The notes below the pieces were generated by a model. It made no database searches, was not told where the DNA came from, and saw only the letters and a list, made by a program, of their open reading frames with translations. A stretch of 64,000 nt of DNA from Candidatus Hodarchaeota archaeon (lineage in GTDB: Archaea > Asgardarchaeota > Lokiarchaeia > Sigyniarchaeales > SOKP01), in assembly GCA_048886685.1 (NCBI GenBank), contig JBHLKM010000002.1:7532-71531 (forward strand), read 5' to 3'. Position 1 is the stretch's first letter, and each line of letters opens with the position of its first letter. Positions 19,478 through 39,140 of the stretch are shown in pieces. The position numbers and the translations under genes are program-made.

Positions 19478-19748
19478 AAAAAAGAATAGCTATTTAATCT
19501 TTCTTTTAATAACTTAAAAAAATAATTTGTTATAAAATTATAGATTCTACATTTCTAGAATAATTGATTTATGGTCTAAAGGGAATAAATGGAGTCATAA
19601 GTTAACTTAGATTCCCCATAACTTACCTTGGCTTTTTTTATTATTCAAAGTCTAATTAATAATTGTATTAATTATATCATTTCTTATTTTACTATAGAAT
19701 AGTTTATAAACATAATTTTCTGGTTCCTTTACATAAAAATTAAGGATC

Positions 19749-19793
19749 TACCAAAGGCTTTTAAGTAAATATTTCTTCATTACTTTTAATCCA
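19749..19793 (+). promoter_or_regulatory. Putative BRE/TATA promoter block, copy 1
   Basis: TACCAAAGGCTTTTAAG... just upstream of the TPR gene at 19807; 38/45 identical to the reverse complement of 24591-24635. Confidence 0.55.
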
Positions 19794-19806
19794 AAAACTC
19801 TAACTG

Positions 19807-21873: not shown

Positions 21874-22010
21874 ATTAAGCATTCGTCAATCTTTTTATCT
21901 TTCAATCTTTTTAATTAAATCAGAAGTATCATAGAAATTAAGTTAATTAATGTAGAAATTAAAACAAACAAAAAAAAAATTTGATTTAAAGGTTATTAAA
22001 GAATATTTCA

Positions 22011-22334
22011 TTATTCGGGTGGTGTTTGTCCTATCGCCCCATAAGCTTCTTCTTGTGTTGCCCAAGTCTCTATTGAATATTCAAATCCTGGGACTGGTCC
22101 ATACATAGCCATCGTAGCTATAGTACGTGCCATAGCTTCCTCAAATTTCCCTTCTTTTACCAAATACACACCCATCGTGATAATACCATCTAAAGTAGCC
22201 TTTACCGCATTTGGTACTACTTGTTCTCCTAAAGACTCATCTTGAGGATATTTTGCTACAACCTCAATAGCTTTTTTAACAACTGCAGGTATTGCCTCAC
22301 TTGGCCAACGTGTTTGAACAATTATATATGGCAT
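22011..22334 (-). CDS. Hypothetical protein, probable ferredoxin-like fold
   Basis: 107 aa ORF with an SD-like GAGGG upstream and an alternating beta/alpha pattern. Confidence 0.7.
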   Translation of the reverse strand: MPYIIVQTRWPSEAIPAVVKKAIEVVAKYPQDESLGEQVVPNAVKATLDGIITMGVYLVKEGKFEEAMARTIATMAMYGPVPGFEYSIETWATQEEAYGAIGQTPPE

Positions 22335-22524
22335 ATTTTTTTGCCCTCTTTTTAGTTTTTATACATTTTTGTGATTAGATTTCGGATGTAAGTTATAATT
22401 TCCATTTTGTATATAAATGTTTACCTTCTTGTCAGTGAAAGATGATTTTGTGAATCAATTAGAAAACTTTACGATATAATCATAGATTATTTTTTTTTGG
22501 TTTTGTATTTAAAAAAATCCAGTT

Positions 22525-24429
22525 CTAAGTAAGGAATATATTAGAAATTACATGTTCTAGAGAAGGATTATCTTTTAAGGTAATTGCTTGATGAGTTCTA
22601 TGAAAATCTTTAAATGGCTGCCAAATAGAACTGTCACTTTCCATTTTTTCGGCAAATTGAGTTAATTTTTGAGTAGCAAGATAGGTTTGTCCTTTAAATA
22701 GATAACATATAGAAAAAAAGCCTACAGGCTTCATAATTATCGTGTATTCTCCAAATTTCGCCCGATCAAGCCCCTTAGAAAACACCTCCTTACTGAATGT
22801 ATTAAAAGCCGTTAAAAAATTGCTAATAAATCCATCCTCGTACGACCAATCTTCTGTAAAAGGATTAGAAAAAGCGGGAACTCCTCCTTCAGCAATAATT
22901 AAAAGCAACACAGGTTCTTCATCGATGAGTTCGGGAGCATTCACGGCTCTTCTTCCATGCATTAAGTCTAATGTATCATCTAATGATGCCAAATCTAATC
23001 TTTCTGGTATCGGCAATTTTTTCTTTTTATAACTTTCCAATCTTTCTAACTGTTCTAATAATTTATCGTGTTCATAGGAGATTGCTCTTGCTAGTAGATG
23101 TAAGCTATGAGAATCAGCAATCTGTTGGGCTTCCGTTAGATATCGTCTGGCATCCCCCATGTTAAGTTGAAGTAAAGATATCTTCCCGTTTAGCAAGAAA
23201 GCTTGAGTTTGTAATAAAAAGGAGTTCCTTTGTTCTGACGCTTTAATTAACTTATCAACTAAAGGTTGAATGTCTTCAAGAATTGCTAAATCGTTCGACG
23301 CTATAAATTCTTGAAAATATAACTCACAAAGTAGCAATAAACTCTCATAGTAGTTATCAAAAAGGGCATCTATTGCTTGTATTTCCTCACAAATTTCCTT
23401 CGCAATATTTTCGGCTTCAGCCCTATCTTTGACACGTGAACTTGATGCTAATATATATGCTTTTGATAATCTATACCTAACCATATCTTCTGGATCTTTC
23501 CAACCGATTAATTTACCAATAATAGAAAGATCTTTTTTCCCTAAATATTGATAGAAATGATCTAAGCATTGTTGTGCTTCCTCACGTGAATCTTTGTATA
23601 AAAATAGTTTTATCATTTCTTTATAACCGCCTCCCGACCACGCAATTGAAGTTGTATCTGATAGTGGCTCCAGTATTTTCAGACTCTTTTCAAAATATTG
23701 AATTGCTTGATCTAGAGCCCCTTTTTGAAAGTAAATGGAACCAATGTTATTGTAAATTGCTCCTTTTACCAGAGCGACTAAAGGAGGAATTATTACATGG
23801 GTAGCTTTGATATGATCCAAGGTTTTCTTATGAAAGTCTAATGCGAAATCTAATTCCCCCTTGAATGTGTAACACGTCCCTAAGAGCCATAAATTAACTC
23901 GAGTCAATCCCGATCCAAAAACACCATATTTTTCAGATATCGCTAGACTTTTTTTAAAGAGTTCTATACCTTTGTCAAAACTACCCCCCCAATAAAAGTA
24001 ATAACCATTCATAGTAAAAAGAAAACTTTCTCTCAATTTAACCTCATCTAAAGGTTCTTGCGTAATGGATTTGAGTAATTTCTCACTTGAAAAAATATCG
24101 TCCCATATTTTACCTTTTTTATTGTAAGGACTAAAACTCCCAGTCAATTGTAAGATAAAAAATTTTAAAAAGATCGAATCAATAAAAAATAACGGCTTAT
24201 TTTGACTTTTACTCTCCTGATAATCTTGTTCTGCTATTCTAAGGCTTTCTTGAATTTTCGTCATATTGAATAATATCCATGCTTTAAGATATCGATAATA
24301 ATGTTTATCTTCTAGAGTTTGATCTCCTAACTTCTCAAAATCTATTAGTAATTGTAAACCTTCCTCTAAGTTTCCCTCACTATAAAGTTTCCATACTCGT
24401 TCTAATTCCGGGTGTATAGAAATACGCAT
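22525..24429 (-). CDS. TPR protein with C-terminal longin-like domain (paralog 2)
   Basis: TPRs plus the same conserved C-terminal ~135 aa; GAGGT SD upstream of the ATG. Confidence 0.85.
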   Translation of the reverse strand: MRISIHPELERVWKLYSEGNLEEGLQLLIDFEKLGDQTLEDKHYYRYLKAWILFNMTKIQESLRIAEQDYQESKSQNKPLFFIDSIFLKFFILQLTGSFSPYNKKGKIWDDIFSSEKLLKSITQEPLDEVKLRESFLFTMNGYYFYWGGSFDKGIELFKKSLAISEKYGVFGSGLTRVNLWLLGTCYTFKGELDFALDFHKKTLDHIKATHVIIPPLVALVKGAIYNNIGSIYFQKGALDQAIQYFEKSLKILEPLSDTTSIAWSGGGYKEMIKLFLYKDSREEAQQCLDHFYQYLGKKDLSIIGKLIGWKDPEDMVRYRLSKAYILASSSRVKDRAEAENIAKEICEEIQAIDALFDNYYESLLLLCELYFQEFIASNDLAILEDIQPLVDKLIKASEQRNSFLLQTQAFLLNGKISLLQLNMGDARRYLTEAQQIADSHSLHLLARAISYEHDKLLEQLERLESYKKKKLPIPERLDLASLDDTLDLMHGRRAVNAPELIDEEPVLLLIIAEGGVPAFSNPFTEDWSYEDGFISNFLTAFNTFSKEVFSKGLDRAKFGEYTIIMKPVGFFSICYLFKGQTYLATQKLTQFAEKMESDSSIWQPFKDFHRTHQAITLKDNPSLEHVISNIFLT

Positions 24430-24590
24430 AATCTTTACCTCTTTTTATTTACTCCTTTAAAAGTTCAGAGATATCTGTTAAATACGCATAGTTGAATTTC
24501 TTATAAAGATTATTATATTAATTTTATATATAGCTTATCATATTAATTTTTAATTAATAACTACTTGAGAATTTTTTAATTCGCAGACAA

Positions 24591-24635
24591 TGGATCAAAA
24601 ATAAGGAAGAAAAGCTTTCTTAAAAGCCTTTGGTA
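24591..24635 (-). promoter_or_regulatory. Putative BRE/TATA promoter block, copy 2
   Basis: 38/45 match to 19749-19793 in inverted orientation, about 160 nt upstream of paralog 2. Confidence 0.5.
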
Positions 24636-24890
24636 CTATCATTTCGATTTAAGAGGTTTTTGTCGTTTCACAGGAAATTTCATTGAAATCAGACTCCGAA
24701 TTTACCTTTGCTGATAACTCACTTAATCCCGAATGCTTAGTTTCAACTTGGATTTTCAACTTGAATGATAATCTATTTTACCGATTCTTAATTAAGTTTC
24801 TCAGTTCTCGATATATTATGTAAATATAGAATTAGGTATATAGATTATTAACTATCTATAGGGAAAATAACCAAAAATTAGAAAGAGCAA

Positions 24891-24962
24891 TGGACCTAGC
24901 GGGAATTGAACCCGCGGCCTTTCGCATGCCAAGCGAACGATCTTCCACTAATCCATAGGCCC
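24891..24962 (-). tRNA. tRNA-Ala(GGC)
   Basis: Reverse complement GGGCCTATGGATTAGTGGAAGATCGTTCGCTTGGCATGCGAAAGGCCGCGGGTTCAATTCCCGCTAGGTCCA folds as a cloverleaf with GGC anticodon, G3:U70 Ala identity pair, no intron and no encoded CCA. Confidence 0.97.
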
Positions 24963-25102
24963 ATCGATTATATAATAATTTAAACACTCCCAAATAATTA
25001 AATTTTTGTATTTTAAGACTAGAAACATGGATTTATCTAAATATAAAATATAAAATTAATTGAAGAGAAAATGGGATTTAAATAAAATGATTTTAGATAT
25101 TT

Positions 25103-26283
25103 TTATTGGACAATTTTATCAAGTGTATTCATCAACCCTTTTATCCGAGCATCACCTATCATTTCAGGATTCAGCTTATTCATGGCGAAAGCCATACATA
25201 ATTCCATATCTGGATCCATCATACAAAGAGATCCACCATACCCTCCCCACCAAAAACTTCTTGCACCTATATTGGTACCCAGTCGATCTCTTACATGATC
25301 ATTCATTAACCCCCATCCTAGTCCAAATCGAAGAGGGAATCTTGCAAAGAGATCTTTACCAGATATTTGTTCTTCTAAAGATTTTTCTATTGCTTTACGG
25401 GATAAAATTCTAACTCCATTTAATTCACCCCCATTAGCGAGCATTGCACCGATTTTTGCAATTGACCTTGCATTACCATGGCCATTTACTGCGGGAATTT
25501 CTGCAGCTCGCTAATCTCTCAAATTCAATTGTGGGAAATCCATCACCAACATACTTGAGAAAGTTTTCATAAAAATCGATTTTTTTATAAAGGGAAAAAT
25601 AATTCTTAAGAATATTCTTTGAAATAGGTTTGGAGGCGGAGGAGGGATCAAATCAGCAACTCGAAAGTCTAATTCTTTACCAAATCCAATATGAAAATCT
25701 GCATCTAATGGAGAGGCTATTTCCTCCTTAAAGAACTTCCCAAGGGTTTTTCCAGTTATTCTTTTCACTATTTCTCCTAGCAAATAACCAAAGGTCATCG
25801 CATGGTACCCAGATTTTGTTCCGGGCTCCCACCATGGTTTTTGGCTAGCTAATAGGCTAGTAACCTTTTCCCAATTATAATAATCATTCATCTCAATTTT
25901 TTCATCCCAACCGGATAAACCTGAACTATGACTAAGCAAATATTTTACAGGTAGTTTGTCTTTCCCAGCTTGAGCAAATTCAGGCCAATAATTCGCTACA
26001 GGAGCATCAAAGTCAAGTTGTCCTCGATCTGCTAAAACATGAATACAAAGTGCCGCCATTATCTTTGTAGTAGAAAAGACGTGTACAATTGTATCTTTTT
26101 CCCATGGACGCGTTTTTTCAGCATTTGCATACCCCCCCATAAATCAACTACGAATTTCCCTTTTATGTTCACAGCTAGTGATGCCCCAACATCTACCCCA
26201 GTTTTTAAATTATTAGCAAAATGGCTCTTTAGAGGTTCAAACTCACTTTCGCAGATTCCTTTGACGTCATTAATGTCTGACAT
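25103..26283 (-). pseudogene. Serine hydrolase (class C beta-lactamase/EstB-like) pseudogene
   Basis: Three ORF pieces join into one protein (FSTTK, LLSHSSGL, GYHAMT, WGGYGGS). Frameshift in a G7 run at 26132-26138 and an in-frame TAG at 25511-25513. Confidence 0.88.
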
Positions 26284-26508
26284 TTTAATGAATTAGTCTG
26301 TTGATTAGATATGATAGTTAGACGAGTTATATAAAGCTATTTATTACATATAGCGGGTTTAAGAGTTAAATATAAAAAAAATTTCTTTCTTAATTCTTTT
26401 TCAGTATATCCAGCTATAAATTCAAAATAAAAATATACTTTATTGTGAGGAATTGGTTATATATCAAATAATTAAATTTTTTTATTTTATTGAAAATAAT
26501 GACTAAAT

Positions 26509-27066
26509 ATGGTACATTTATTTTACACTACTTTCTCTTCCCCTTTCGATACGTTTACAATAGTATGGAAGGAAACTGATTCTGATTTACGGATACAACG
26601 AATCTTTCTTAGTGATCCTGAGCATAAATCCGAAACCATAGCTTTTCAATTTTTCAAGCAAATTAATTTAGGTTCATCTTCACTGATCAGATCGCTTGGT
26701 GAGAAAATCCAACGGTTTTTTAATGGTCAAAAGGTAGAATTCAATTTAGGCTTAATTGACTTTAATAGGTGTTATGAAGTTCAAAAGCAGGTGCTTTTAG
26801 CTGAATATGAGATTCCAAGAGGGTGGGTTAGTACCTATAAGCGAATTGCGGGTAAAATAGGTATACCAAAAGGGGCAAGAGTAGTTGGGAATGCCCTAGC
26901 TCGTAATCCATTTCCTATCATTATTCCATGTCATAGAGCGATTAGAAGTAATGGCGAACTTGGTGGATTTCAAGGTGGCATGAAAATGAAACGTGTGCTG
27001 CTGGAGATGGAAGGAATAGAGTTTTCGGATAAAGGAAAAGTTATTACTGATAAAATTTGTTATTGA
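26509..27066 (+). CDS. ogt: Methylated-DNA--protein-cysteine methyltransferase
   Basis: IPRG...TY, ARVVGNAL..NP, active-site IPCHR, LGGF.GG..K..LL..EG. Confidence 0.95.
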   Translation: MVHLFYTTFSSPFDTFTIVWKETDSDLRIQRIFLSDPEHKSETIAFQFFKQINLGSSSLIRSLGEKIQRFFNGQKVEFNLGLIDFNRCYEVQKQVLLAEYEIPRGWVSTYKRIAGKIGIPKGARVVGNALARNPFPIIIPCHRAIRSNGELGGFQGGMKMKRVLLEMEGIEFSDKGKVITDKICY

Positions 27067-27109
27067 CTTTCAACAAATCTAACCCCGATTTCTTTTTTAA
27101 TTAATTATA

Positions 27110-29065
27110 TTATGAAATTACCTGAGTTGAGATTTCAGGGCTTTTTTTAATGAAGATTTCTGTTATGAGTGATTCTAAGTAGGGATTCCCACTCAATTTT
27201 ATCGCTTGATGACTCTTCTGGAAATCTTCAAGAGCGTTCCATATTGTCGTTGTGTTTTGTACACGATGAGCAAACTGAATTAGTTTTTGTTTTGCGAGAT
27301 ATGATTGCCCCTTGAATAAATAGCACACGGAATAAGGCCCGATTGATTCCATTATTAACATGAATTCTCCAAACATAGCCCGGTCGAGTCCCTTAGAAAA
27401 CACTTCATTGCTAAAAGTGTTAAATGCTGTTAAGAAATTACTGATAAATCCCTCTTCGAAAGACCAGTCTTTGGTAAAAGAGTTAGAGAATGCTGGAATT
27501 CCACCTTCTGCAATAATTAAAAGTAATACAGGTTCTTCATGAATTAATTCTGGGGTTTTAACCGTACGTTTTTCAAGAATAATATCTATCGTTGACTCCA
27601 GCAAGGCAAGATCTATTCGTTCCGAGAAAGGGGCATTAGTTTTATGAAGTTCTTCCCATTTTTCTATTTCTTTCAATACAAGATCATGTTCAAGAGAAAC
27701 AACTTGTGCTGATATATTAAGCCCGTGCCATTCAGCCGTTTCCTGAGCTTGAGTAAAGAGGCGTCTAGCCCGTTCAATATCTGTTTCAATTAAAGCCAAT
27801 TTAGCTCGCATGAGATGAGTATATACCAACCATTTGTATGAACGTTGTTCTTTAGAAATTTTTAACAATCTATTAATTATAGATTTAATCTCATTTAGTA
27901 TTTCTGGATTATTTGTTTTACTTACTTTACCCAAGAGTATTCCACAGAGACTAAGTAAAGCGTAACAAGTAATTTCAGTATATTCAAAATCATCTTCAGT
28001 TACTTGTCTCAATAATTTTTCGGCTTTATGTATATCTTTAACGTGACTGCTTTTCAGGAAATCAGCTTTTGCAACTCGATATATATGATTAAAGAATGGT
28101 CTTTTATATTGGTCACGTAATTGTCGCATACGTTTTAAATATAATCTTGCTTTTTCTACTGAGTCTTTTTCAACATAAATAGTAACAAGATATCTGAATG
28201 CATATATTAATTGAGTAGAAATTTCACATTTTTCAGAGAATGTAACACACTTATTTTGAAATTCTAAAGCTTTTTCCAAATTACCCCGAAGAAAATAAAT
28301 TTTCCCTACATTAAATAAACATTCTATGATACCAGGGTTATAATCTAATTCCTCCGCTATTCTAAGTGCCTGTTCGTGATAATCTAAAGAGAAATCCAAT
28401 TCACCTTTAACATTATAAATAAGACCTATAAGATTTAAGGCTCTAATTGTGTATAAATTACGGATTTCCTTGATTGCTAGCACCTTCTTTCCGTATTTTA
28501 AAGCTTGATCAAGTTTACCTAAAGTATAATAATCCAAAGCTGTATAATAATGATTAAAAGCCTCATTATTCTTATCATCGATTCCTTCATACAATTTCGC
28601 TGCCTTTTTTTGGTATTTTATGGCGATATTAATTTGACCTTTAATTACGTGAAGGCCTGCTTTTCCTGCCATTAACATCCCCTTTCTGCGGGTAAGTTCT
28701 CGAGGTGGGACTCCTATTAGGGTATTAAATAATTTTTCAAATTCTATTAGTAATTCTACAAATTCTTTATATTTAAAGAGATAAAAAAGAGACAAGGCTT
28801 TTATATTCCAGGCATCAAGAATTCGAAGCTTGTTTCCCATTTCTTTGCTGTATTGATACACTTGTTCCGCAATGTTAAGAGCATCATTGAATTTACTTAA
28901 ATCAATATAAAGTCCTCCTTTGAATATCATAAATTCGACTCTTTCTTCTGGTGTTAGCTCTTCATTTTTCTCAATATTGTTTACAAGATCAAGCGCTTCT
29001 TGATATTTCCCAGTTAACCTGAGTGTTGTTCCAAATAATAGTTTTTCTGAAATCGAAGTTGGCAT
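27110..29065 (-). CDS. TPR protein with C-terminal longin-like domain (paralog 3)
   Basis: TPR array plus the conserved C-terminal domain; GAGGT upstream. Confidence 0.85.
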   Translation of the reverse strand: MPTSISEKLLFGTTLRLTGKYQEALDLVNNIEKNEELTPEERVEFMIFKGGLYIDLSKFNDALNIAEQVYQYSKEMGNKLRILDAWNIKALSLFYLFKYKEFVELLIEFEKLFNTLIGVPPRELTRRKGMLMAGKAGLHVIKGQINIAIKYQKKAAKLYEGIDDKNNEAFNHYYTALDYYTLGKLDQALKYGKKVLAIKEIRNLYTIRALNLIGLIYNVKGELDFSLDYHEQALRIAEELDYNPGIIECLFNVGKIYFLRGNLEKALEFQNKCVTFSEKCEISTQLIYAFRYLVTIYVEKDSVEKARLYLKRMRQLRDQYKRPFFNHIYRVAKADFLKSSHVKDIHKAEKLLRQVTEDDFEYTEITCYALLSLCGILLGKVSKTNNPEILNEIKSIINRLLKISKEQRSYKWLVYTHLMRAKLALIETDIERARRLFTQAQETAEWHGLNISAQVVSLEHDLVLKEIEKWEELHKTNAPFSERIDLALLESTIDIILEKRTVKTPELIHEEPVLLLIIAEGGIPAFSNSFTKDWSFEEGFISNFLTAFNTFSNEVFSKGLDRAMFGEFMLIMESIGPYSVCYLFKGQSYLAKQKLIQFAHRVQNTTTIWNALEDFQKSHQAIKLSGNPYLESLITEIFIKKSPEISTQVIS

Positions 29066-29189
29066 ATTATTATAGACCTCAGATAGGAAATAAGTATTGA
29101 ATTTATTCTATTAATGTTAATATTTTTTGCGATAATATATATTTTACATTTCTGTATAACCCAAAAGAGTCCTTTGCTTTTATCTATAA

Positions 29190-31283
29190 TTATATTAGAG
29201 TTGAGATTTTAAGGCTTCTTTTCATGAATACCTCCATTATAAGCGATTCTAAAGTCAGATTTTCACTTAATACTATCGCCTGATGGTTTTTATGGAAATC
29301 TTCAAAAGTCTTCCATATCGATGCTGTGTTTTGTACACGATGACAAAACTGAATTAATTTTTGCTTCGCAACGTAAGATTGCCCCTTGAATAAATAGCAC
29401 ACGGAAAAAGATCCTACTGGTTCCATTATTAACATATATTCTCCAAACATAGCCCGATCGAGCCCCTTAGAAAACACTTCCTTGCTGAAAATGTTAAAAG
29501 CGGTGAGAAAATTACTGATAAATCCATCTTCGAAAGACCAGTCTTTAGTAAAAGAGTTAGAGAATGCGGGGATTCCACCTTCCGAAATAATTATAAGCAG
29601 TATTGGTTGTTCATCAACTAATTCTAGAGCCTTAATCTCAGGATATTTTTTAAACTGATCAATAAATTTGTCAAAAGATGATAATTTTATGCGTTCTGAT
29701 ATTGGGGCACCTCTTTTTTTAAGGTTTTTCCAGAGGGATAGTTGTTCCAGTAAAAGATCATGCTCCCGAGAAATTACACTAGCTAATCTCTGAAGATCAT
29801 GCGACTCTGCAATACTTTGAGCTTGCATTAATAACTCATGTGTCTTTGGGATGTCAATTTGGATTAATGCCAGCTTCGCTTGTAATAATTTTGCATAAGC
29901 TAACCACTTAAATGAGTGTTCTTCTTCTGATATGTTAAGTAAACGAGTAATTAATGGATTGATTTCCTTTAATATTTCTGGATCATCATAAACCTCTAGT
30001 TCTTTTAAGTAAAGATCACACAAATGAAAAAGAGCATTCATAAGTGGAGGGTAGTGAGTCGTGGATCTCGCTTCAATAACCTCTTTAAATAATTCTTCTG
30101 CTTTTGCACGATCACGAGTTCTACCACTTTTTTTCAATACTATTGCTTTCGTTAAGGGATACAATATTGTTCTGAACCTTTCTGCTCTTTTTGTACCCAT
30201 CTGTTCTATTTGGTCTACAATCTTTTTTAAATGTCTAAGGTACATTTGTGCTTGTTCGTCTAAATTTTTTTCAAGATTTAGAATAACTAAATTGTACAAC
30301 GAAGTTTGCATCGCAATAAAATAATTATACTTTTCGCACAGAGCTAAACTGCGTTCAAAAAATTTTTTAGCCTGATCATATTCCTCCCTATAATAATAAA
30401 CTTGGCCAATCCACACTAAACTCATTACTAATCGAGAAATATTGTGGATTTTCTCCGCGTATAATGCTGCCTTTTTAAAGTTCTTTAAAGCTTTCTCTAA
30501 TTCACCTCTATTATAGGTAATAACTCCTAAATATTGATATGCATAATGTTTGATGTTAGGGCTACTTTCTTTGATCGATATACTCTGATTGAGAAATTTT
30601 ACAGCTTTATCAAAGTTTCCTTTTTCAAAATAAATATGTCCAACTAAATAAAGACTATTTGCTATACCGTATGGATTCCTTAGTTCTTCTTGGAGCGTCA
30701 AACTCTTGGTGGCATAATCTAATGCCTTATCTAATTTTAATCCTGTTCTGTAAGCATATCCAATTGCAAGTAAAGTGTCTGCTATATCGATTTTCTTGCC
30801 AATCTTTTCTCGTAATGCTAAACACTGGAATATTGATTCTAATTCGTTATTATAGTCATTCTTATGACGGTATAACCTAGATTTAAAGTATAAAATATCT
30901 GCTTTTAGATTTGAATAACTTTTAGATGATTTATTGGTAAGAGCAGTAAGTAAATTTTCGGCTTCTTTAATAAATACAAAACTATCGTGAGTCTTTTTAC
31001 CAAAGAGCGCTCGAGCTTTAAGAATTAGGGCATCAATAGATTCAGTGGACTTTCCAAGTTTTTGACTTAACTGATACGCTTTTTCAGATATTTCTATTGT
31101 ATTCCATGGTTCACCTCTATAAAGATAGATTTTTCCTCTTAAAATAAGAGATAAAAGCTCATCTTCTGGCTTAAATAATTCTTGTTTTTCAAGGTTTTCA
31201 ATTATATCAAGTGCTTCATCGAATTTAGCCTTATACATGAGCTGTTTAACATCAGCTAGTTGCTTTCGCTTCAAATCGGACAT
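29190..31283 (-). CDS. TPR protein with C-terminal longin-like domain (paralog 4)
   Basis: TPR array plus the conserved C-terminal domain, in tandem with paralog 3. Confidence 0.85.
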   Translation of the reverse strand: MSDLKRKQLADVKQLMYKAKFDEALDIIENLEKQELFKPEDELLSLILRGKIYLYRGEPWNTIEISEKAYQLSQKLGKSTESIDALILKARALFGKKTHDSFVFIKEAENLLTALTNKSSKSYSNLKADILYFKSRLYRHKNDYNNELESIFQCLALREKIGKKIDIADTLLAIGYAYRTGLKLDKALDYATKSLTLQEELRNPYGIANSLYLVGHIYFEKGNFDKAVKFLNQSISIKESSPNIKHYAYQYLGVITYNRGELEKALKNFKKAALYAEKIHNISRLVMSLVWIGQVYYYREEYDQAKKFFERSLALCEKYNYFIAMQTSLYNLVILNLEKNLDEQAQMYLRHLKKIVDQIEQMGTKRAERFRTILYPLTKAIVLKKSGRTRDRAKAEELFKEVIEARSTTHYPPLMNALFHLCDLYLKELEVYDDPEILKEINPLITRLLNISEEEHSFKWLAYAKLLQAKLALIQIDIPKTHELLMQAQSIAESHDLQRLASVISREHDLLLEQLSLWKNLKKRGAPISERIKLSSFDKFIDQFKKYPEIKALELVDEQPILLIIISEGGIPAFSNSFTKDWSFEDGFISNFLTAFNIFSKEVFSKGLDRAMFGEYMLIMEPVGSFSVCYLFKGQSYVAKQKLIQFCHRVQNTASIWKTFEDFHKNHQAIVLSENLTLESLIMEVFMKRSLKISTLI

Positions 31284-31421
31284 TTTTTTCTTCTACAAAA
31301 GATTTTAAAAATCTAATCTCAATGAATTATTTGGTTTTATTTTTAATGGATGATTTCGTAAATAGCAATTTTTATAAATTTCTACCAAAGAAACAGAAGG
31401 CATCTTTATATATATTTATTA

Positions 31422-31783
31422 TTAAATCGGAGTTGAGATTTCAAAACACTTTTTCAAAGAAGATTTCTGTTATGAGTGATTCTAAGGAGGGATTCTCACT
31501 TAATTTTATGGCTTGATGTGTCTTTTGGAAACCTTCAAGAGCATCCCATATTGTCGCTGTGTTTTGTATACAATGACAAAACTGAATTAATTTTTGCTTC
31601 GCAACGTAAGATTGTCCCTTGAATAAATAACACACAGAAAAAGGGCCAACTGAATCCAATTCACTTTTCATTCTACCAAAAAAATGGCCTTTAGTGAAAT
31701 TAAGCAACCTTTTGATATGAAACATTTCCCTCGTTATTAAGTTTAATAGCATGATTTAATTTCGAAGAATTCGAAATTTGCAT
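31422..31783 (-). pseudogene. Internally deleted fifth TPR-longin paralog
   Basis: ATG at 31783 gives MQISNSSKLNHAIKLNNEGNV (9/21 identical to the paralog 2 N-terminus); 31441-31660 encodes the family C-terminus with a +1 frameshift before EISTPI*. Confidence 0.8.
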
Positions 31784-32046
31784 AGTATTTTATATCCTAC
31801 GATGAAAGAATTTCATTAATCCGTATTTAATTGAATTCTTTTTAAAAAAAATAGAAGATTATTTTACTTAAAAGATTTTGGCATATTCCCAATTCTAGTT
31901 GAAGAAAAGGAAAAGTTCTTCATATTAAATTTCAAGAGAATTGTTTTCTTTACATCAAAAAAGATAAATATACTAGAAAGTAAAATTTACTAGTAAGTGA
32001 AAAATGAAAATTAGTCGACTCAGAATATTTTAAAAATAATAATATC

Positions 32047-32964
32047 ATGAGTAGTGAAACCCAAAATCCTTTGTTATTCAAGATATCTATTCTAGGAGAT
32101 GAAGGGATTGGCAAAGATAAATTTATTAATTTATTTGCCAAAAGCCAATTTTTAGAAGAATCAGATGCTGAATCAGGTGTCACTTCTTATAACGGCAAAA
32201 TAACTATTGATACAGACGAGGGTCAGCAGGAGTGTGTCATTTGGATTTGTAATATTGAAGGAAAAAAAAGATTTAAAACGTCATATTCTACTTATTTGGA
32301 AGAAAGTCATGGGATTATGATATTTTTTGATTTGACAAATCGAAAGTCATTTGACAATTTACCAAATTGGATTGATGATATTAAAGAAGAGCGTAAATCT
32401 AAAGTTCCTATCCTCCTTGTTGGTAATACAGAAAAATCTAAAGAGTTTGTTGTTTCACCTAAGGAGATTAACAGTCTTATTCGAAAGTTTAATTTATACT
32501 ATATAGAAACTTCCCTAACGGCAAGAGAAGGAGTTTTTGACAGCTTTTATTGTATTACGAGCTTATCACTTGGAATTAATGTTAATAGTAAATTTTTTCT
32601 AACTAAAGATGTCGTTTATTATCCATCATCAAGCTTAGCTGAATCAATTCCTACAACCCAAATATTATCTTCTCAAGATCTTAGTAATTTGGGACACAAA
32701 GCAATTTTTGAGAAAATAGATAGACTAGAGGAAAAAATTAAAAAATCAATGCAAATTGAGCTCCCGCATTATATAATTCTTGCAGCTATATTTTTATCCA
32801 TTTCTTCACTTATTTTATTATTTATACAAGATTCCTTGTATATCCTACCAAGAAATCATCCTGGAAGAAGTTACGTTGATCTCATTCTTTGGACAGCAAT
32901 GGGATTTGAAATTGTGTTTGTAGTTTTGATTATAATAAGTTATGTTAAACGATATAAAATATAA
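32047..32964 (+). CDS. Rab-like small GTPase domain with two C-terminal TM helices, degenerate G motifs
   Basis: FKISILGDEGIGK, GIMIFFDLTNRKSF, ILLVGN, YIETS; two hydrophobic segments at the C-terminus. Confidence 0.85.
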   Translation: MSSETQNPLLFKISILGDEGIGKDKFINLFAKSQFLEESDAESGVTSYNGKITIDTDEGQQECVIWICNIEGKKRFKTSYSTYLEESHGIMIFFDLTNRKSFDNLPNWIDDIKEERKSKVPILLVGNTEKSKEFVVSPKEINSLIRKFNLYYIETSLTAREGVFDSFYCITSLSLGINVNSKFFLTKDVVYYPSSSLAESIPTTQILSSQDLSNLGHKAIFEKIDRLEEKIKKSMQIELPHYIILAAIFLSISSLILLFIQDSLYILPRNHPGRSYVDLILWTAMGFEIVFVVLIIISYVKRYKI

Positions 32965-33065
32965 TAGATATATTACTGAGCAAATAAATGTGTTAGATGT
33001 AAAATTACAATTTAGGGCAATAAAGAATATTTTTTAAGTTAAATTAAGATAAAAAATGATAAACT

Positions 33066-34043
33066 ATGCCTATCAATACATCAAATCCTTTATTGTTTAG
33101 GATATCCATTATTGGTGAGGAAGGGATCGGTAAAGACATATTTATTAATGCTTTTACATCTAATCAATTCCTAAAAGAATCAGATACAGGCTTAGGTGTT
33201 GCATTTTACAAAGGAAGTCTAATATTAGATGCAGAAAAAGGACAGCAAGAGTGTGTCATTTGGATTTGGGATCTTAAAGAGCGGGAAGGTTATAAGAATT
33301 TACATTCTCGTTATTTGAAAGGAACTAATGGGATTATGCTTTTTTTTGATCTTACTAATCGTAAATCTTTTAACAAAATCCCTGATTGGATTAAGAATAT
33401 TAGAAATAGTGTTAATATTGAAATTCCAATCCTTCTTGTTGGTAATCGAGGAGTTACAAAAAAATTTTTAGTTTCACCTAACGAAATTAACAATATTATA
33501 CGAGAATTCAATTTATTCTATATTGAAACCTCCCTAACAACAAAAGAAGGAATTTATGATAGTTTTTATTGTATGATCAGTTTAACACTTGGGGTAGAGG
33601 TCGATCATCAATTTTTTTTATCAAAAGATATTATCTATTATCCACAATCAAGTCTAGCATTAAAAACTTCTACAACTGAATTGTTAACTTCCCAAGATTT
33701 AAGTAAGTTAAGTCAGCAAGCAATTTTTAGAAAAATAGAGTCTTTAGAAGAAACCTATGAAAGATCGACACAAATAAAAATACCTATTAAATTGTTAGTA
33801 TCTGAAGTAGTTTTATCTATTGGAGTAATATCCTTTTTTATTATTGAGCATTTTTTACGTATGCTTCTTTATGAGTTTCCAGAAGATTTTGAGTATGTAG
33901 ATCTCATTCCTGAACTATGGTCTGTTAGGACAGCGGATCTAATTAAGTTTCTTCTTCTTACCGGTACCACAATGCAATTATTCATCGCTATTTCTATCAT
34001 AGTCAGTTATATTAAAAGTACTCTTAAAAAGACCACTTTTTGA
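33066..34043 (+). CDS. Rab-like small GTPase domain with two C-terminal TM helices (tandem paralog)
   Basis: GEEGIGK, IWIWDL, FFDLTNRKSF, ILLVGN, YIETS; clearly paralogous to 32047-32964. Confidence 0.85.
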   Translation: MPINTSNPLLFRISIIGEEGIGKDIFINAFTSNQFLKESDTGLGVAFYKGSLILDAEKGQQECVIWIWDLKEREGYKNLHSRYLKGTNGIMLFFDLTNRKSFNKIPDWIKNIRNSVNIEIPILLVGNRGVTKKFLVSPNEINNIIREFNLFYIETSLTTKEGIYDSFYCMISLTLGVEVDHQFFLSKDIIYYPQSSLALKTSTTELLTSQDLSKLSQQAIFRKIESLEETYERSTQIKIPIKLLVSEVVLSIGVISFFIIEHFLRMLLYEFPEDFEYVDLIPELWSVRTADLIKFLLLTGTTMQLFIAISIIVSYIKSTLKKTTF

Positions 34044-34103
34044 AGTTCTTTAGAATCTGTGGAATGATAGTTAAACTATTTCTATCTACAAATAGTGTTT
34101 TAA

Positions 34104-34214
34104 GTGGGATGTTTTCCAGCTAATGACATAGTTAATGCTCTTTTTATTCTCGCAATTATAATACAAATTGAAGTGATCATTCCTATTATTATTGGTTATA
34201 TTAAGAATCGCTGA
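34104..34214 (+). pseudogene. Relic of the last TM helix of a third Rab-TM paralog
   Basis: ANDIVNALFILAIIIQIEVIIPIIIGYIKNR* aligns without gaps to TADLIKFLLLTGTTMQLFIAISIIVSYIKST of the upstream gene. Confidence 0.5.
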
Positions 34215-34365
34215 ATCTATTTAAAAACCTATTAAAAATTTTTTGATACTAAATATTTAAGTGTTCACAAAAAAGTAGTAATTTAAATATAAAATCTATA
34301 TTTTTCATAACAAAAATCAAATTATTAGCACAAATTAAGAATTGATAAAATGATTGCTGACGATT

Positions 34366-34479
34366 TCACTGACGGGAATCTTCTCTAACAATAGATCCAA
34401 ATAAAGAAGCTCTTTTAACATCATGCTCTTTTAATTTCACTATAATTTTTTCTCTATACTTTTCAATTTGAGAGACCAT
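34366..34479 (-). pseudogene. Truncated minimal nucleotidyltransferase (MntA-type antitoxin)
   Basis: MVSQIEKYREKIIVKLKEHDVKRASLFGSIVREDSRQ*: typical MNT N-terminus that stops before the DxD motif. Confidence 0.7.
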
Positions 34480-34668
34480 TTTATTTGTCAGACTATTCTA
34501 ATGTTTAGCTTATCTTTACTAAGTATTATCTTCACTAAGCTTAAAAACCTTATTTATTATTATTGCTTTTACGTTTAAAAACATCAGCCTTCATTGGATG
34601 TTCAGCAATCTAGATACTATTTTACAAATATCATCGTGAAACGATGATTTCACGAAAAATGTGATTGC

Positions 34669-34728
34669 AGAGAAAATAATTCTTCAGTCTTACTAGTTGG
34701 CAATAAAATAGATTTAGCAAAACATCGA
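34669..34728 (+). pseudogene. Small GTPase relic (G4 region)
   Basis: RENNSSVLLVGNKIDLAKHR in an otherwise closed region; canonical Rab G4 context. Confidence 0.5.
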
Positions 34729-34797
34729 GGATATAAAATTCTTTTTCCCGAAATATGCCGCAGCTAAGGATGGATTAGAAATAATGCTGTACTAATT

Positions 34798-35355
34798 TTA
34801 AATTTTCCAATTATTCAAAATTTCTATTGTGTTTTGAGAAGGGAAATTTATTAATAATTTTATCATTATCTCGAAGGCTTTTATCACATTTTCTCCAGAT
34901 TTGGCTGATACTTCGAGAAAAGCGGCAAGGTTATATTTTGTTGCGGTTCGTATTCCTTCAAGGTATGATACTTCTCTTAGATCATATAAATCTGATTTAG
35001 AACCGATTAAAATTATTGGAATGTCTCCTGCATTTTCCCTTATCATTTGAATCCAATCGACTAGGTTCTCTAACGATTCTATATTTGTAATATCATAAAT
35101 AAAAAAAGCTCCATTTGCATCTTTACAGTATTGCGAAAATAAAGATGGTAATTTTAAATCGATCCCCAATTCCCATATCTGTAATTTTATTTCTTTATTT
35201 TTGAAAAATGCTGTTTTTAAATAATATTCAACCCCAATTGATAATTTTCTATCTGGGTTGAATAAACCAGAGGAATATCGTCTTACAAAAGAATGTTTGC
35301 TCCCAGAGGCGTCACCAATGATTAAAACCTTGAATATATAATCAGCTATCGCCAT
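34798..35355 (-). CDS. Rab-like small GTPase with degenerate P-loop
   Basis: ATG at 35355 (MAIADYIFKVLIIGD) preferred over the track's TTG at 35403; IKLQIWELG, YDITN..S, IGSKSDL and EVSAKSGENV. Confidence 0.85.
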   Translation of the reverse strand: MAIADYIFKVLIIGDASGSKHSFVRRYSSGLFNPDRKLSIGVEYYLKTAFFKNKEIKLQIWELGIDLKLPSLFSQYCKDANGAFFIYDITNIESLENLVDWIQMIRENAGDIPIILIGSKSDLYDLREVSYLEGIRTATKYNLAAFLEVSAKSGENVIKAFEIMIKLLINFPSQNTIEILNNWKI

Positions 35356-35622
35356 CTTATTTATTGAACCCCAATATCCTAATTTTAAACCTCTTATACC
35401 CAAATATCAGAAAAAAATTCACTTATTTATAATTAACACTTCTTTCCTTATTTCACGTGAAAAAAGGGAATTGATTAATAATCTCAAGAATTTCTATTTT
35501 CAAACAAACAAAGTAAGGATACGAGAAAATAGCGAAATCTAACAAATAAGTATATCTATATACTTTGTTTGAATAATAATTAATCATATAGCAAAAGAAG
35601 TTGATTAAAAATTTCAGAACAA

Positions 35623-36708
35623 TTGTGGCAAAAGGTAACAAGAAATTTTGTAAATGCAGGAGGTGCGCCTATCCCTATAAGTGATACACTAATAAAGCTA
35701 ATTCAGATTCTAGTTAATGAAGATCAAGCAAAATTTCTATTAATTTTTAGGAAGCGTGCATTAAATATTGACCAGATTAAAACTAAAACCGATTTAGACG
35801 ATATAGCACTAAAAAAGATGCTCAATGAATTAATGGATAATGGGATAATAACTGGAATTCCAAGTAGGAGTACTGGAATTATGGTTTATTCTTTAGTGTC
35901 TGTCCTTCCGGGTTTAATGGAGTATCCTTTTATGAGAGGTGAAAAAGGTCAAAAACAGAAGGAACTAGCTAAATTAATGGATAAAATATTTGATGAATTG
36001 AGCCACTTAACTCAAAGTAATTACGAAGTACTTGTGGAGCAATTTAAGGGTGGAAATCCATTGGATAGGGTCGTACCTGTTGAAGAGGAACTCGAACCAT
36101 ATCTAGACGTGGTGTTGCCTTATGAAGGCATTAAAAGTATTATAGAAAGAAATGAAATTATTAGTATTAATCATTGCTATTGTAGAAATTGGAAAGATAA
36201 TTTACAAGAACCATGTAAACTAGAAAGTCCTGAATTAAGTTGCTTTCAATTTGGGAGATACGCCCAATTTCTTATAGAACACAAATTTAGTAAGCCAGTT
36301 ACAAAAGAAGAAGCATTAAAAATATTGAAAGAAGCTGAGGATAATGGTCTTTTACACAAAGCTTTTCATGGGAGGAATCCTGGACAGGAAGAAGACGCAT
36401 TTTGTAACTGCTGTAGTTGTTGTTGCCAGCTTTTTCAACTTTATAAGCGAGGAATATTCCCTTTTCATACATTAACATATTATATAGTAAAAATAGATGA
36501 AACCAAATGCACAGGATGTGGAACTTGTGCTCAAAAATGTCCCATAGAAGCAATTGAATTAATAGATAATCTTTCTATCACTAATCTTGAGAGATGCATA
36601 GGTTGTGGGTTATGTGCTTATCATTGTCCTGAGAAAGCTAGGAGTTTAGAAAGAATAGGACTTAGAGAAGTGTGTATCCCCCCTCCACAAATAGTTCCGA
36701 TTAATTAA
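35623..36708 (+). CDS. 4Fe-4S dicluster protein with N-terminal HTH-like region
   Basis: CYCR, CNCCSCCC and two CxxCxxCxxxCP ferredoxin motifs. Confidence 0.88.
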   Translation: MWQKVTRNFVNAGGAPIPISDTLIKLIQILVNEDQAKFLLIFRKRALNIDQIKTKTDLDDIALKKMLNELMDNGIITGIPSRSTGIMVYSLVSVLPGLMEYPFMRGEKGQKQKELAKLMDKIFDELSHLTQSNYEVLVEQFKGGNPLDRVVPVEEELEPYLDVVLPYEGIKSIIERNEIISINHCYCRNWKDNLQEPCKLESPELSCFQFGRYAQFLIEHKFSKPVTKEEALKILKEAEDNGLLHKAFHGRNPGQEEDAFCNCCSCCCQLFQLYKRGIFPFHTLTYYIVKIDETKCTGCGTCAQKCPIEAIELIDNLSITNLERCIGCGLCAYHCPEKARSLERIGLREVCIPPPQIVPIN

Positions 36709-36917
36709 AATTCTATTCGCACTAATTTTTATCTATGTATTCAATTTTAGCAGATATTAGTTATTAGCTATGAAATTATTATTTATCATTAAATAAGTTG
36801 TTTGCAAGTTTTTTTAACTTTCAAATGCTATTTATAATAATTAAAATAATATGGTAATTCCTTATCGGACGATTTAAACTCACTACTGTCAAATTTAAAG
36901 ATCTTGCACCCATTATT

Positions 36918-39140
36918 TTGGTAATGCTATTGCTTTTCGTCTCGATAGCATGTGCCAATATGCTCATTCCTAGTTATGCTGCTATAAGAGAAGAGTTTGA
37001 AATCCCTAAAGCGTTAATAGCAATCCCAGATGCATTTTTTGTTTTAATAAGCGCATTTTTTGCCTTATTATGGGGATATTGGGCAGATCGAATTGATAGA
37101 GGAAAAGTATTAGTTGCAGGAGCATTTTCATGGACTTTTGGGATGCTTTTAACGGCGTTTTCAAATTCGTATCTAATGTTAGTAATCTCCAGAGTATCGA
37201 GTGGAGCCGGATTAGGTTGCGTTTTACCTGTTGGGTATTCTATTATCTCAGATGCGATTCCTGCTGAAGAAAGATCTGGTTGGTTTGGTACTTTGGCTAT
37301 TCTAAGCTCGATATCTAACGGGGCTGGACAAGGGCTTTCTTCTTTCTTGGGTCCTATTTTTAGTTGGAGGTTTCCTTTTCTCTTACTTGCTGTGATTAGT
37401 GTAATTGTAATTATTGTACTTTTTTTTGTAAAAATCCCTCAAAGAGGAGCGGGAGAAAATGAACTTCTAGATTTAGTCGAATTAGATTTAGAATATAGTT
37501 ATCGTATTTCTAAAGAGGATTTAGGTGCTATTATCAAAAAAAAGACAAATCTCTATTTGATAATTCAAGGTTTTTTTTCTATTATCCCTGGGACTGTGCT
37601 CGTATATTTTACAACTTCGATGTTAGTTACTGATTTTTTTAATGATATACCTAGTGAAATACAACTGCAAACAGCTACCATCTTTGCAGGAATGATCGGT
37701 GTTGGTTATATTCTTGGTAATGCTGTATTTGCTCGTTTAGGAGACATCTTATTTAGAAAAAATAAAAAAAATAGAGCTAGGTTAGCTACTTTATGTTTAA
37801 TACTTTCAATTCCTTTTGCTATAATTTTACTTATCTCATTAAGGCCAATAAATGCGAGCAACCTAAATATTAACTATCCTCTATCTCCTGATACAATTTC
37901 CACAGATCAATTGTGGAGTTATATCTTCAGGACCATTGGAGCGATATTTGTTGCCTATCCAACATATATTATCTTTTTTATATTTGCATTAATGGCCTCA
38001 ATGTTAGGGGCAGGACCAGTTGCTAATAGAAATGCTGTTATGATAGATGTGAACATGCCAGAACATAAGGGGACTTCAGCTTCTTTTTTTAAACTCTCCG
38101 AACAGATAAGTAAAGGAATAACTCTTTTAATATCATATACCCTCATTTCTATATTAGGAAGTGTATTCAACATGCTTTTTGTTACTGTGTTTTTTTGGCT
38201 TCCTGCAGCAGTTTTATGGTATCTTGCAAGTAGAAATGTAGAAAAAGATATGAATTATAAATCTAGAATTTTATCAGAACGAAAACAAGTGGGAGTAATT
38301 GATTATATCTTCGAAGTAGAAATTCAAATGGATAGAGCAATTCAAAAGGTACAAGATTCAAGATATTATATACATACTAATCAAGAAAAATTCAATGAAT
38401 TACTTGAAGATGCTTTAAAAATTTTTAAATTCTGTGAACATGAAGGTGAATCTCGAAGTATTACAAATATTGAAAAAAAAGCACATATAATGTATTTAAG
38501 AGTTTTATTAATCAAACATGAAACAAATAACATATTTAAGAAACTTAACTCTCCTGATCTTACAGAATCTGAAATTACTCGCTTAAAAAAGGAACTAAGT
38601 AAAAATTCTATTAAAATTAGTGAATGGGAGAAAAGTACTTTTGGAGAAATTCAAACATATTATGAGGATGCTAGTTTAAAAATTATTGAGGCAAGACTTA
38701 ATCGTAAAAAGAATTTAATTAAGGGACTACATAAGATTTCAGAAGCTATTAAAATTTATGAACGAATAAAATATCTACTAAATGAAAGACTTGAAATTAT
38801 AGAAGAAAGTCAAGAATTATCAGAAGAAGAAACTATCGTTAGAGACAAGGAACAAGAATTATATGATAAATGTATCAAATCTTTAAATGCTACAATTAAG
38901 CTAAAGGAAGAAATTGAATATGCCTTAAATCAGTTAAAAGAAAAAGGGATTCAACAGGAAGATTTAACGAAAATCTCTAATCTTACACAAGAATATGAAG
39001 TAGATCTCTATAATGTGATAGTAGATACATTTAAACAAGATGAACAAACCAAAAATGCACTTATAGATACATTAGAAAAAATAGATGATCTTTTTAATCA
39101 ATATGATAACTGGAGAGAAGTAGATCTTACTGTATTTTAA
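36918..39140 (+). CDS. MFS transporter fused to a ~290 aa soluble helical C-terminal domain
   Basis: Motif A WGYWADRIDRGK, IISD..P.EERS..FG and about 12 TMs; long charged helical tail. Confidence 0.88.
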   Translation: MVMLLLFVSIACANMLIPSYAAIREEFEIPKALIAIPDAFFVLISAFFALLWGYWADRIDRGKVLVAGAFSWTFGMLLTAFSNSYLMLVISRVSSGAGLGCVLPVGYSIISDAIPAEERSGWFGTLAILSSISNGAGQGLSSFLGPIFSWRFPFLLLAVISVIVIIVLFFVKIPQRGAGENELLDLVELDLEYSYRISKEDLGAIIKKKTNLYLIIQGFFSIIPGTVLVYFTTSMLVTDFFNDIPSEIQLQTATIFAGMIGVGYILGNAVFARLGDILFRKNKKNRARLATLCLILSIPFAIILLISLRPINASNLNINYPLSPDTISTDQLWSYIFRTIGAIFVAYPTYIIFFIFALMASMLGAGPVANRNAVMIDVNMPEHKGTSASFFKLSEQISKGITLLISYTLISILGSVFNMLFVTVFFWLPAAVLWYLASRNVEKDMNYKSRILSERKQVGVIDYIFEVEIQMDRAIQKVQDSRYYIHTNQEKFNELLEDALKIFKFCEHEGESRSITNIEKKAHIMYLRVLLIKHETNNIFKKLNSPDLTESEITRLKKELSKNSIKISEWEKSTFGEIQTYYEDASLKIIEARLNRKKNLIKGLHKISEAIKIYERIKYLLNERLEIIEESQELSEEETIVRDKEQELYDKCIKSLNATIKLKEEIEYALNQLKEKGIQQEDLTKISNLTQEYEVDLYNVIVDTFKQDEQTKNALIDTLEKIDDLFNQYDNWREVDLTVF

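Follow-up and report, generated by a model that had tools for sequence, protein, structure and literature searches.

The 64,000-nucleotide stretch analysed here, which we call the window (contig C2:7532-71531 of a 4.4-Mb Candidatus Hodarchaeota archaeon assembly of 47 contigs with ~30% G+C), carries two adjacent genes, A and B, whose products join a Rab-like domain to two C-terminal transmembrane (TM) helices. Both proteins have the small-GTPase fold, have lost its sequence motifs, evolve under purifying selection, keep a fixed tandem order and end in a hydrophobic hairpin with biased flanking charge. From these results we infer a loss of nucleotide binding, a heteromer, its partner and a biological role, and we read A and B as an old duplicate pair of Rab-fold proteins in which GTP-switch work has ceased and which, at what we judge to be an even chance, form a heteromeric, membrane-anchored pseudoGTPase docking platform. 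The open reading frames (ORFs) and their main features, in window coordinates and amino acids (aa), are as follows.

32047..32964, plus strand: ORF A, 305 aa, A-type paralogue, intact; G domain aa 5-175, linker 176-236, TM1 ~242-260, TM2 ~279-297, basic tail SYVKRYKI
32095..32118, plus strand: degenerate G1/P-loop of A, GDEGIGKD, aa 17-24
32770..32937, plus strand: TM hairpin of A, with TM1 aa 242-260, a short loop and TM2 aa 279-297
33066..34043, plus strand: ORF B, 325 aa, B-type paralogue, intact; G domain aa 9-175, linker 176-236, TM1 ~243-261, TM2 ~295-313, basic tail
33114..33137, plus strand: degenerate G1/P-loop of B, GEEGIGKD, aa 17-24
33261..33287, plus strand: former G3/switch II of B, WIWDLKERE, aa 66-74, invariant in 12/12 B-type orthologues
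33792..34004, plus strand: TM hairpin of B, with TM1 aa 243-261, an acidic loop and TM2 aa 295-313

A Rab-like fold with degenerate G motifs

A sequence-only reading of the window had described A and B as Rab-like domain proteins with two C-terminal TM helices each, and Pfam, HMMER, hydrophobicity and a structural model of B all agree with that description. The two proteins, 49% identical over their full length and separated by 101 bp at the gene level, match Pfam Ras (PF00071, cut-off 21.6) at E 7.6e-27 and 94.3 bits for A and at E 2e-28 and 99.5 bits for B; Roc is the second match of both, far above cut-off, and Pfam yielded nothing for either beyond these two families. Among solved relatives the best HMMER scores went to Rab8A, Rab11 and KRas, with KRas nearly equal to the Rabs. 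From an alignment of 22 family sequences, AlphaFold 2 (AF2) modelled B with a mean predicted local distance difference test (pLDDT) score of 77.6, and structure search with this model returned Rab27, Sec4 and Rab8 at target TM-scores of ~0.75-0.8; beyond the G domain the model contains a short strand, a helix at 209-236 and long helices at 241-270 and 289-323. Sequence cut-off and alpha/beta fold together place both proteins in the Ras superfamily, which is abundant in this genome (~100 Ras-family matches; 108 Ras-superfamily ORFs called).

To read the G motifs we used HMMER alignments to Rab8 and Rab11 and a hidden Markov model alignment of the 108 ORFs. All five motifs deviate in both proteins:

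G1, canonical GxxxxGK[ST]: GDEGIGKD in A, GEEGIGKD in B
G2, canonical Thr: Glu in A, Gly in B
G3, canonical DxxGQ: NIEGK in A (Gly kept), DLKER in B
G4, canonical NKxD: NTEK in A, NRGV in B
G5, canonical SAK: SLT in A, SLT in B

In the P-loop of A, Asp replaces the Mg-binding Ser/Thr and Glu occupies the position of Ras Gly12; among the 108 ORFs, GKD is confined to A and B. The earlier reading had already reported the change of the G1 Ser/Thr to Asp (GKD) and the loss of NKxD at G4 in both proteins, and the alignments bear this out. Its further statement that DxxGQ is lost at G3 is correct for B and needs amending for A, where NIEGK retains the DxxG Gly, and the degeneracy extends past those three motifs to the G2 Thr and the G5 SAK of both proteins. 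Neither A nor B thus has the G1-G5 motifs of a functional Rab-type GTPase, and judging from these substitutions the two almost certainly no longer hydrolyse GTP; nucleotide binding, too, would have been lost.

Rab8, Rab11 and Sec4 are the best sequence and fold matches of A and B, which nonetheless differ from them in all of G1-G5, in RabF motifs that are only partly recognisable (by eye, LGVAF, IWIWD and LFFDLT show a partial likeness to RabF1-F5 when aligned with Rab8 and Rab11 by HMMER) and in lacking a Cys for geranylgeranylation, neither tail (...SYVKRYKI and ...KSTLKKTTF) containing any Cys.

Broken motifs also occur elsewhere in the genome. Around ten further paralogues of the 108 have a disrupted G1, G3, G4 or G5 (for example C28:2411-2938, C35:7628-8173, C35:8372-9613, C32:4583-5365, C32:6802-8088, C22:43102-44304 and C19:14127-14666), and by their motifs pseudoGTPase-like copies are common in this genome.

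Selection, duplication and the membrane anchor

A word-based search recovered 23 relatives of two types, A and B, and the closest outside proteins came from metagenome bins of Promethearchaeota (Lokiarchaeia). GK[DE] is invariant in 22/22 aligned family members, and in 12 B-type orthologues that are ~65% identical overall, both WIWDLKERE and the switch I/interswitch segment GLGVAFYKG are invariant. Across five loci, pairwise ratios of nonsynonymous to synonymous substitution (dN/dS) in the G domain were 0.07-0.14 for B and 0.14-0.33 for A; these are Nei-Gojobori estimates with dS near saturation (0.6 to >2), so that the ratios are approximate. Given that the motif changes are fixed in orthologues and that G-domain dN/dS lies well below 1, the degeneracy reflects selection and not decay, as the sequence-only reading had proposed from the two ORFs. 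Switch II is less constrained in the A type than in the B type: at residues 68-74 (32248-32268) A has CNIEGKK, in contrast to the WDLK[EG]KK of other A-type orthologues, in agreement with A's higher dN/dS.

The view that the genes are decaying, non-functional Rab-like copies could appeal to the degenerate G motifs and to a relic of the B 3' end that lies downstream:

34107..34214, plus strand: relic of a former C-terminus of B, with the CFP motif of the loop, TM2 and the tail, in B's frame behind four stop codons

Against decay, at least six loci carry the ORFs intact, the G-domain ratios are those given above, and the substituted motifs are themselves invariant; the selection data refute it, and we leave it next to no probability. 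The relic itself comprises 34 aa, begins 60 nt beyond the B stop and terminates at its own stop; over its whole length it aligns with the loop, TM2 and tail that close B-type orthologues (53% identity with residues 280-313 of the orthologue P0009) and is nearer to the orthologue consensus than the TM2 that B now uses. Two direct copies of a 26-nt sequence, at 33990-34015 and 34179-34204 and thus 189 nt apart, point to an old tandem duplication of 189 bp at the B 3' end, and the relic is its downstream copy.

In a G-domain tree (FastTree, SH-like supports and not bootstraps), A and B fall into a single clade with support 100, and the A type and B type occupy opposite sides of one branch (94 and 89). 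Since A and B each lie on their own side of this branch, the duplication is older than the species split. The A-then-B order on one strand, with gaps of ~30-170 bp, recurs in six independent loci (the window, L001, L003, L005/L012, L007 and L013), and with L001 the synteny extends from an S8 peptidase gene through TPR genes and the pair to an MFS gene.

The C-terminal helices are strongly hydrophobic. Kyte-Doolittle means of the 19-residue segments are 2.7 and 2.65 in A and 2.2 and 2.1 in B, and the two best such segments range from 1.8 to 3.05 in 21/21 family members; among the 108 Ras-superfamily ORFs, A and B alone end in a pair of hydrophobic helices. Summed over the 21 members, K/R outnumber D/E by 92 to 50 in the 15 residues before TM1 and by 61 to 1 in the tails of 5-12 residues, as against 47 to 61 in the loops. 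Two helices of TM length with this charge bias qualify the family as integral membrane hairpins, and by the positive-inside rule the pattern fits a topology in which G domain and tail are both cytoplasmic. We therefore picture each protein as anchored in the cytoplasmic membrane by its hairpin, with the Rab-like domain and basic tail probably facing the cytoplasm. Within the helices, a TM1 Glu is nearly invariant and a TM2 Gln is conserved. Polar residues within TM helices often drive helix association, and we take the Glu and Gln as a hint of oligomerisation. The linker includes a conserved helix of ~28 residues (209-236 in B); its earlier description as coiled-coil-like stands as far as the helix goes, whereas a coiled coil is not established, with B residues 223-238 modelled at pLDDT <50. 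The ESM Atlas, queried with linker plus TM part, returned non-specific helical matches only and no usable feature match.

Part of this family has been seen before. P0002, 66% identical to B, is KKK46087.1 of Lokiarchaeum sp. GC14_75, and the adjoining A-type gene encodes KKK46086.1; these direct orthologues (Lokiarch_04470/04480) share the tandem order and the two TM helices. NCBI labels the family's orthologues 'Rab family GTPase'. Dey, Thattai and Baum (2016, PMC4917890) singled out KKK46086/KKK46087 as the sole 2/109 Loki small GTPases with hydrophobic helices (2 TM each by two independent predictors, Table S1) and suggested membrane association like that of Miro or Sar1. That paper handles them as GTPases, with no mention of degenerate G motifs, and covers neither the conservation of the paralogue pair nor its selection, narrow distribution or effector-bearing relatives; in the literature searched, we found KKK46086/KKK46087 in no other paper and no paper joining Asgard with pseudoGTPases. 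The idea of a membrane anchor has consequently been known since 2016, and what appears to be new is the reading of A and B as pseudoGTPases. Debate continues over whether Asgard small GTPases act on membranes at all: Loki genomes are without prenylation enzymes, and structurally studied Asgard Rabs are without a lipidated tail (PMC4917890, PMC10933270). A and B and their orthologues are the only intrinsically membrane-anchored Ras-superfamily members of the window's genome and of Lokiarchaeum GC14_75.

The pair is also rare. When Asgard species genomes were searched with a linker-plus-TM profile, 3/398 carried the full module, each in two copies and all three in the window's genus (3/52 species genomes, the window's own included), and a full-length B search of the family's genomes agrees (3/133 species genomes); because scoring in these genome searches was limited to the best 10-16 first-look candidates of each genome, some members may be missed. 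Metagenome contigs added ~10 variants, and an exhaustive profile search, run against 1.84 billion cluster representatives, returned one full-length representative and one fragment, with no canonical-motif relative of the same architecture. Close homologues of this architecture with canonical motifs, or a dN/dS near 1, would have spoken against selected degeneracy, and neither was encountered in the profile search or the dN/dS analysis. What survives of the sequence-only interpretation is a selected, membrane-anchored Rab fold, supported by dN/dS, invariant motifs and hairpin charge; its proposal of a prenylation-free way to place a Rab fold on the membrane is borne out by the hairpin itself but was overstated, having been published in 2016 (PMC4917890) and applying to a few species of one Lokiarchaeial genus.

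This distribution bears on the idea that the pair is a relic of an ancestral Asgard mechanism by which Rab-type identity markers were held on membranes, with direct relevance to the origin of eukaryotic endomembranes. The combination of a Rab-like fold and a membrane anchor, which the phylum's other Rab-like proteins do not have (PMC4917890, PMC10933270), would favour such a relic. Its confinement to one genus, with no occurrence elsewhere among the 398 Asgard genomes, its position deep within a derived clade of acidic-P-loop Rab-like proteins and the apparent loss of switch function all argue the other way, and we disfavour the relic as very improbable. The pair is instead a lineage-specific invention and no ancestral Asgard route to membrane-bound Rabs.

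Neighbouring genes and a candidate partner

Upstream of the pair lies an array of TPR genes on the opposite strand, two of which concern us here:

27110..29065, minus strand: second TPR-longin paralogue of the same array, 651 aa
29190..31283, minus strand: TPR protein of 697 aa with a predicted C-terminal longin-fold domain, divergent from the pair, candidate partner

Paralogues of the array are 46-73% identical over their last ~150 residues and 28-38% over their TPR parts, and the C-terminal ~150 residues are 67-71% identical across genomes. An AF2 model of this C-terminus (pLDDT 72.9) has the order beta-beta-alpha-beta-beta-beta-alpha, and Foldseek matched it to AP sigma/mu, zeta-COP, sedlin, Mon1/Ccz1 and Fuzzy (E from 4e-4, TM-score ~0.5), so that we assign the longin fold with moderate confidence. 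A member of this TPR-longin subgroup adjoins the pair in 5/6 loci, once on the other side.

Small GTPases usually have longin and roadblock domains as their platforms. This, together with the precedent of AAGAB, a class i pseudoGTPase that binds longin-fold AP1 sigma (PMC12490416), makes the longin domain the first candidate partner of A and B. We propose that the former switch I and II, now the most conserved segments, are probably a fixed, nucleotide-independent docking surface; that A and B most likely form a hetero-oligomer, which the juxtamembrane helix and the TM helices with their TM1 Glu and TM2 Gln could join; and that the complex would bring to the membrane a cytoplasmic partner, for which the best candidate is the longin domain that the neighbouring TPR-longin proteins carry. 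A complex prediction for the longin domain with residues 1-236 of A and of B is evidence neither way, as a control with chain A replaced scored equally high.

Class i pseudoGTPases such as the AAGAB N-terminal domain, CENP-M and p190RhoGAP pG1/pG2 resemble A and B in retaining the GTPase fold without G motifs and in serving as protein-protein interaction modules; AAGAB also binds AP2 sigma (PMC12490416, PMC5593906). A GTPase fold, lost catalytic and binding motifs and conservation under selection are all found in A and B, which by sequence would belong to class i. AAGAB, CENP-M and p190RhoGAP are soluble and eukaryotic and are related to A and B only at the superfamily level, and A and B depart from these examples in keeping the GxxxxGK backbone, in being TM-anchored and in that their loss of binding is putative. 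The anchor has other parallels. SR-beta, with its N-terminal TM segment, partners the longin-like SRX domain of SR-alpha, whose counterpart for our purpose is the longin end of the TPR proteins; Miro1/2 are tail-anchored at the C-terminus. Both thus carry a Ras-superfamily domain on a TM segment of their own without lipid, as A and B do, and SR-beta pairs with a longin-type domain; yet SR-beta and Miro are active GTPases with a single TM segment, whereas the C-terminal anchor of A and B is a hairpin of two helices and their motifs are degenerate, and we found nothing in sequence that relates A and B specifically to either.

The genome has 25 full-length TPR-longin genes with divergent TPR parts, in the window at 19807-31752 and at 21 further sites, and a 103-aa relic lies at 31441-31752. 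An Rfam scan of 19000-37000 found one tRNA only, at 24891-24962 inside the TPR array. Convergent to B is a third Ras-family ORF (34798-35403, minus strand, 201 aa, 113 bits), whose pocket reads GDASGSKH, ELGID and SKSD with SAK kept and is thus differently degenerate; it has no synteny in the other loci, and the tree places it among canonical paralogues.

Acidic-P-loop relatives and competing roles

Beyond the A and B types, the next-best matches share the G domain and linker (SFYCITSL ... FLSKD.IY.P ... DL.NLSQ.AIF) to about residue 230 and then diverge:

P0033: P-loop GKE, C-terminus Pkinase and CN_hydrolase
P0036: P-loop GKE, C-terminus TIR_2
P0037: P-loop GKQ, C-terminus TIR_2
P0025 and P0035: P-loops GKD and GKE, C-terminus longin-like by eye
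P0132: degenerate P-loop, four hydrophobic segments

These relatives and the A/B family form one clade (support 98), with P0033 as sister to the A/B family (95); the clade is nested among more numerous long Asgard Rab-like proteins of the canonical kind, P0052 being an example. Since NKSD and the DxxG Gly persist in several GKE proteins, the acidic P-loop came first, and G3 and G4 were lost afterwards in the 2TM family; mainly for this reason we do not equate GKD with the absence of nucleotide.

Several of our observations weigh against the docking platform. The GxxxxGK backbone and Lys of the P-loop are invariant, so that some phosphate-type ligand may still bind, and the GKE sister proteins retain NKxD, from which it follows that an acidic P-loop alone need not abolish binding. 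The TM part evolves faster than the G domain (dN/dS 0.2-0.76), as expected of a plain anchor and not of a specific oligomer interface. Presence in 3/133 family genomes would be odd for a core cell-biological platform. Finally, only 3/25 of the genome's TPR-longin genes lie within 3 kb of a GTPase gene, against 17% for random intervals, and the adjacency of TPR-longin genes to the pair may be synteny inherited among close relatives. With no genome-wide enrichment, we dropped a general operon rule linking TPR-longin and GTPase genes.

The first of these points leads to an alternative that we consider unlikely without setting it aside, namely that A and B still bind a nucleotide or phosphate ligand as atypical, slow or GTPase-activating-protein-independent switches, perhaps not guanine-specific and without Ser/Thr-bound Mg, which would make them class ii or iii. 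P-loop residues G17, G22 and K23 are invariant in 22/22 members; by general chemistry, a carboxylate at the Ser/Thr position could ligate a metal; the sisters' NKSD and DxxG Gly suggest that the acidic P-loop arose in guanine-nucleotide binders; and the orthologues P0002 and P0008 read NRED at G4. Set against this, the G4 Asp is not conserved, SAK at G5 is SLT throughout, the G2 Thr is gone, the DxxG Gly and catalytic Gln have invariantly become Glu and Arg in B, and the phosphate site is flanked by two additional acidic residues (a Glu where Ras has G12 and Asp/Glu at the S17 position). We regard A and B as probably not switches at all, as the docking platform supposes.

The effector domains of the relatives raise a second question, that of immunity. 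P0036 (Ras-TIR, GKE) lies beside genes for TIR-Robl_LC7, LRR-TIR and SLATT proteins and a 1200-aa TPR-Pkinase-CN_hydrolase gene, in what looks like a GTPase-centred immune-type cluster (L016:479-9354), and P0037 neighbours NADAR and three more Ras-like genes; PADLOC defence models recognise P0033 and P0036, in each case by the effector domain. A live though unlikely alternative is that the pair is likewise the membrane arm of immune or conflict signalling, the Rab-like part acting as a regulatory or oligomerisation module, the TM hairpin as an effector that perturbs the membrane once triggered and the hypervariable TPR-longin proteins as sensors. In its favour, the closest relatives with acidic P-loop and linker end in TIR_2, Pkinase plus CN_hydrolase, a longin-like domain or four TM segments, in the gene contexts just described; the distribution is patchy (3/133 genomes); the TPR parts of the adjacent array diverge far more than the longin ends; and polar Glu and Gln are conserved within the TM helices. 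However, A and B, like the third GTPase-like ORF, match no PADLOC model, and the Pfam matches of A and B are Ras and Roc only; a profile comparison (hhalign) of the A/B family with the SLATT neighbour of the relative gave just 64% probability (E 6.6e-5), resting on the TM helices; the flanking synteny with L001, from S8 peptidase to MFS gene, does not look like a mobile island; and TIR or nuclease genes were not found around the 2TM pair loci. SLATT and other 2TM conflict effectors resemble A and B in placing a two-helix membrane module on a regulatory domain, and a SLATT gene does lie near a sister protein, but the cytoplasmic helical domain that follows the TM helices of SLATT is absent from A and B.

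A broader form of this idea, which we advance tentatively and think unlikely, is that the acidic-P-loop Rab-like domain and linker are an Asgard signalling module with interchangeable outputs (TM hairpin, four TM segments, TIR, kinase-nitrilase or longin-like). Here an immune-like network would have the A/B hairpin pair as its membrane arm, whether effector or anchor, and its hypervariable TPR-longin sensors would dock by their constant longin domain on a frozen switch surface. If true, the eukaryotic membrane-traffic partnership of GTPase and longin would have served conflict signalling in Asgard archaea. P0025-type and TIR-type relatives (L008, L009 and L011) have no TPR-longin gene nearby. 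The acidic-P-loop clade with its modular outputs is undescribed in the literature searched.

Collectively, narrow distribution and effector-bearing relatives point to a lineage-specific role in signalling or conflict rather than a proto-endomembrane one, and proteins that are probably not switches, in a narrow derived clade with immune-type effector relatives, argue against proto-Rabs marking organelle identity. A and B also offer a small, tractable pair for studying the function of a prokaryotic pseudoGTPase.

Two members of the wider clade have further features. On the Lokiarchaeial contig L016, a 319-aa upstream gene begins with a longin- or uDENN-like motif. P0132 (L015:984-2099) is a membrane-bound, degenerate Rab-like protein whose hydrophobic segments flank the G domain (aa 15-82 and 324-371), and its gene lies upstream of three radical-SAM/SPASM genes.

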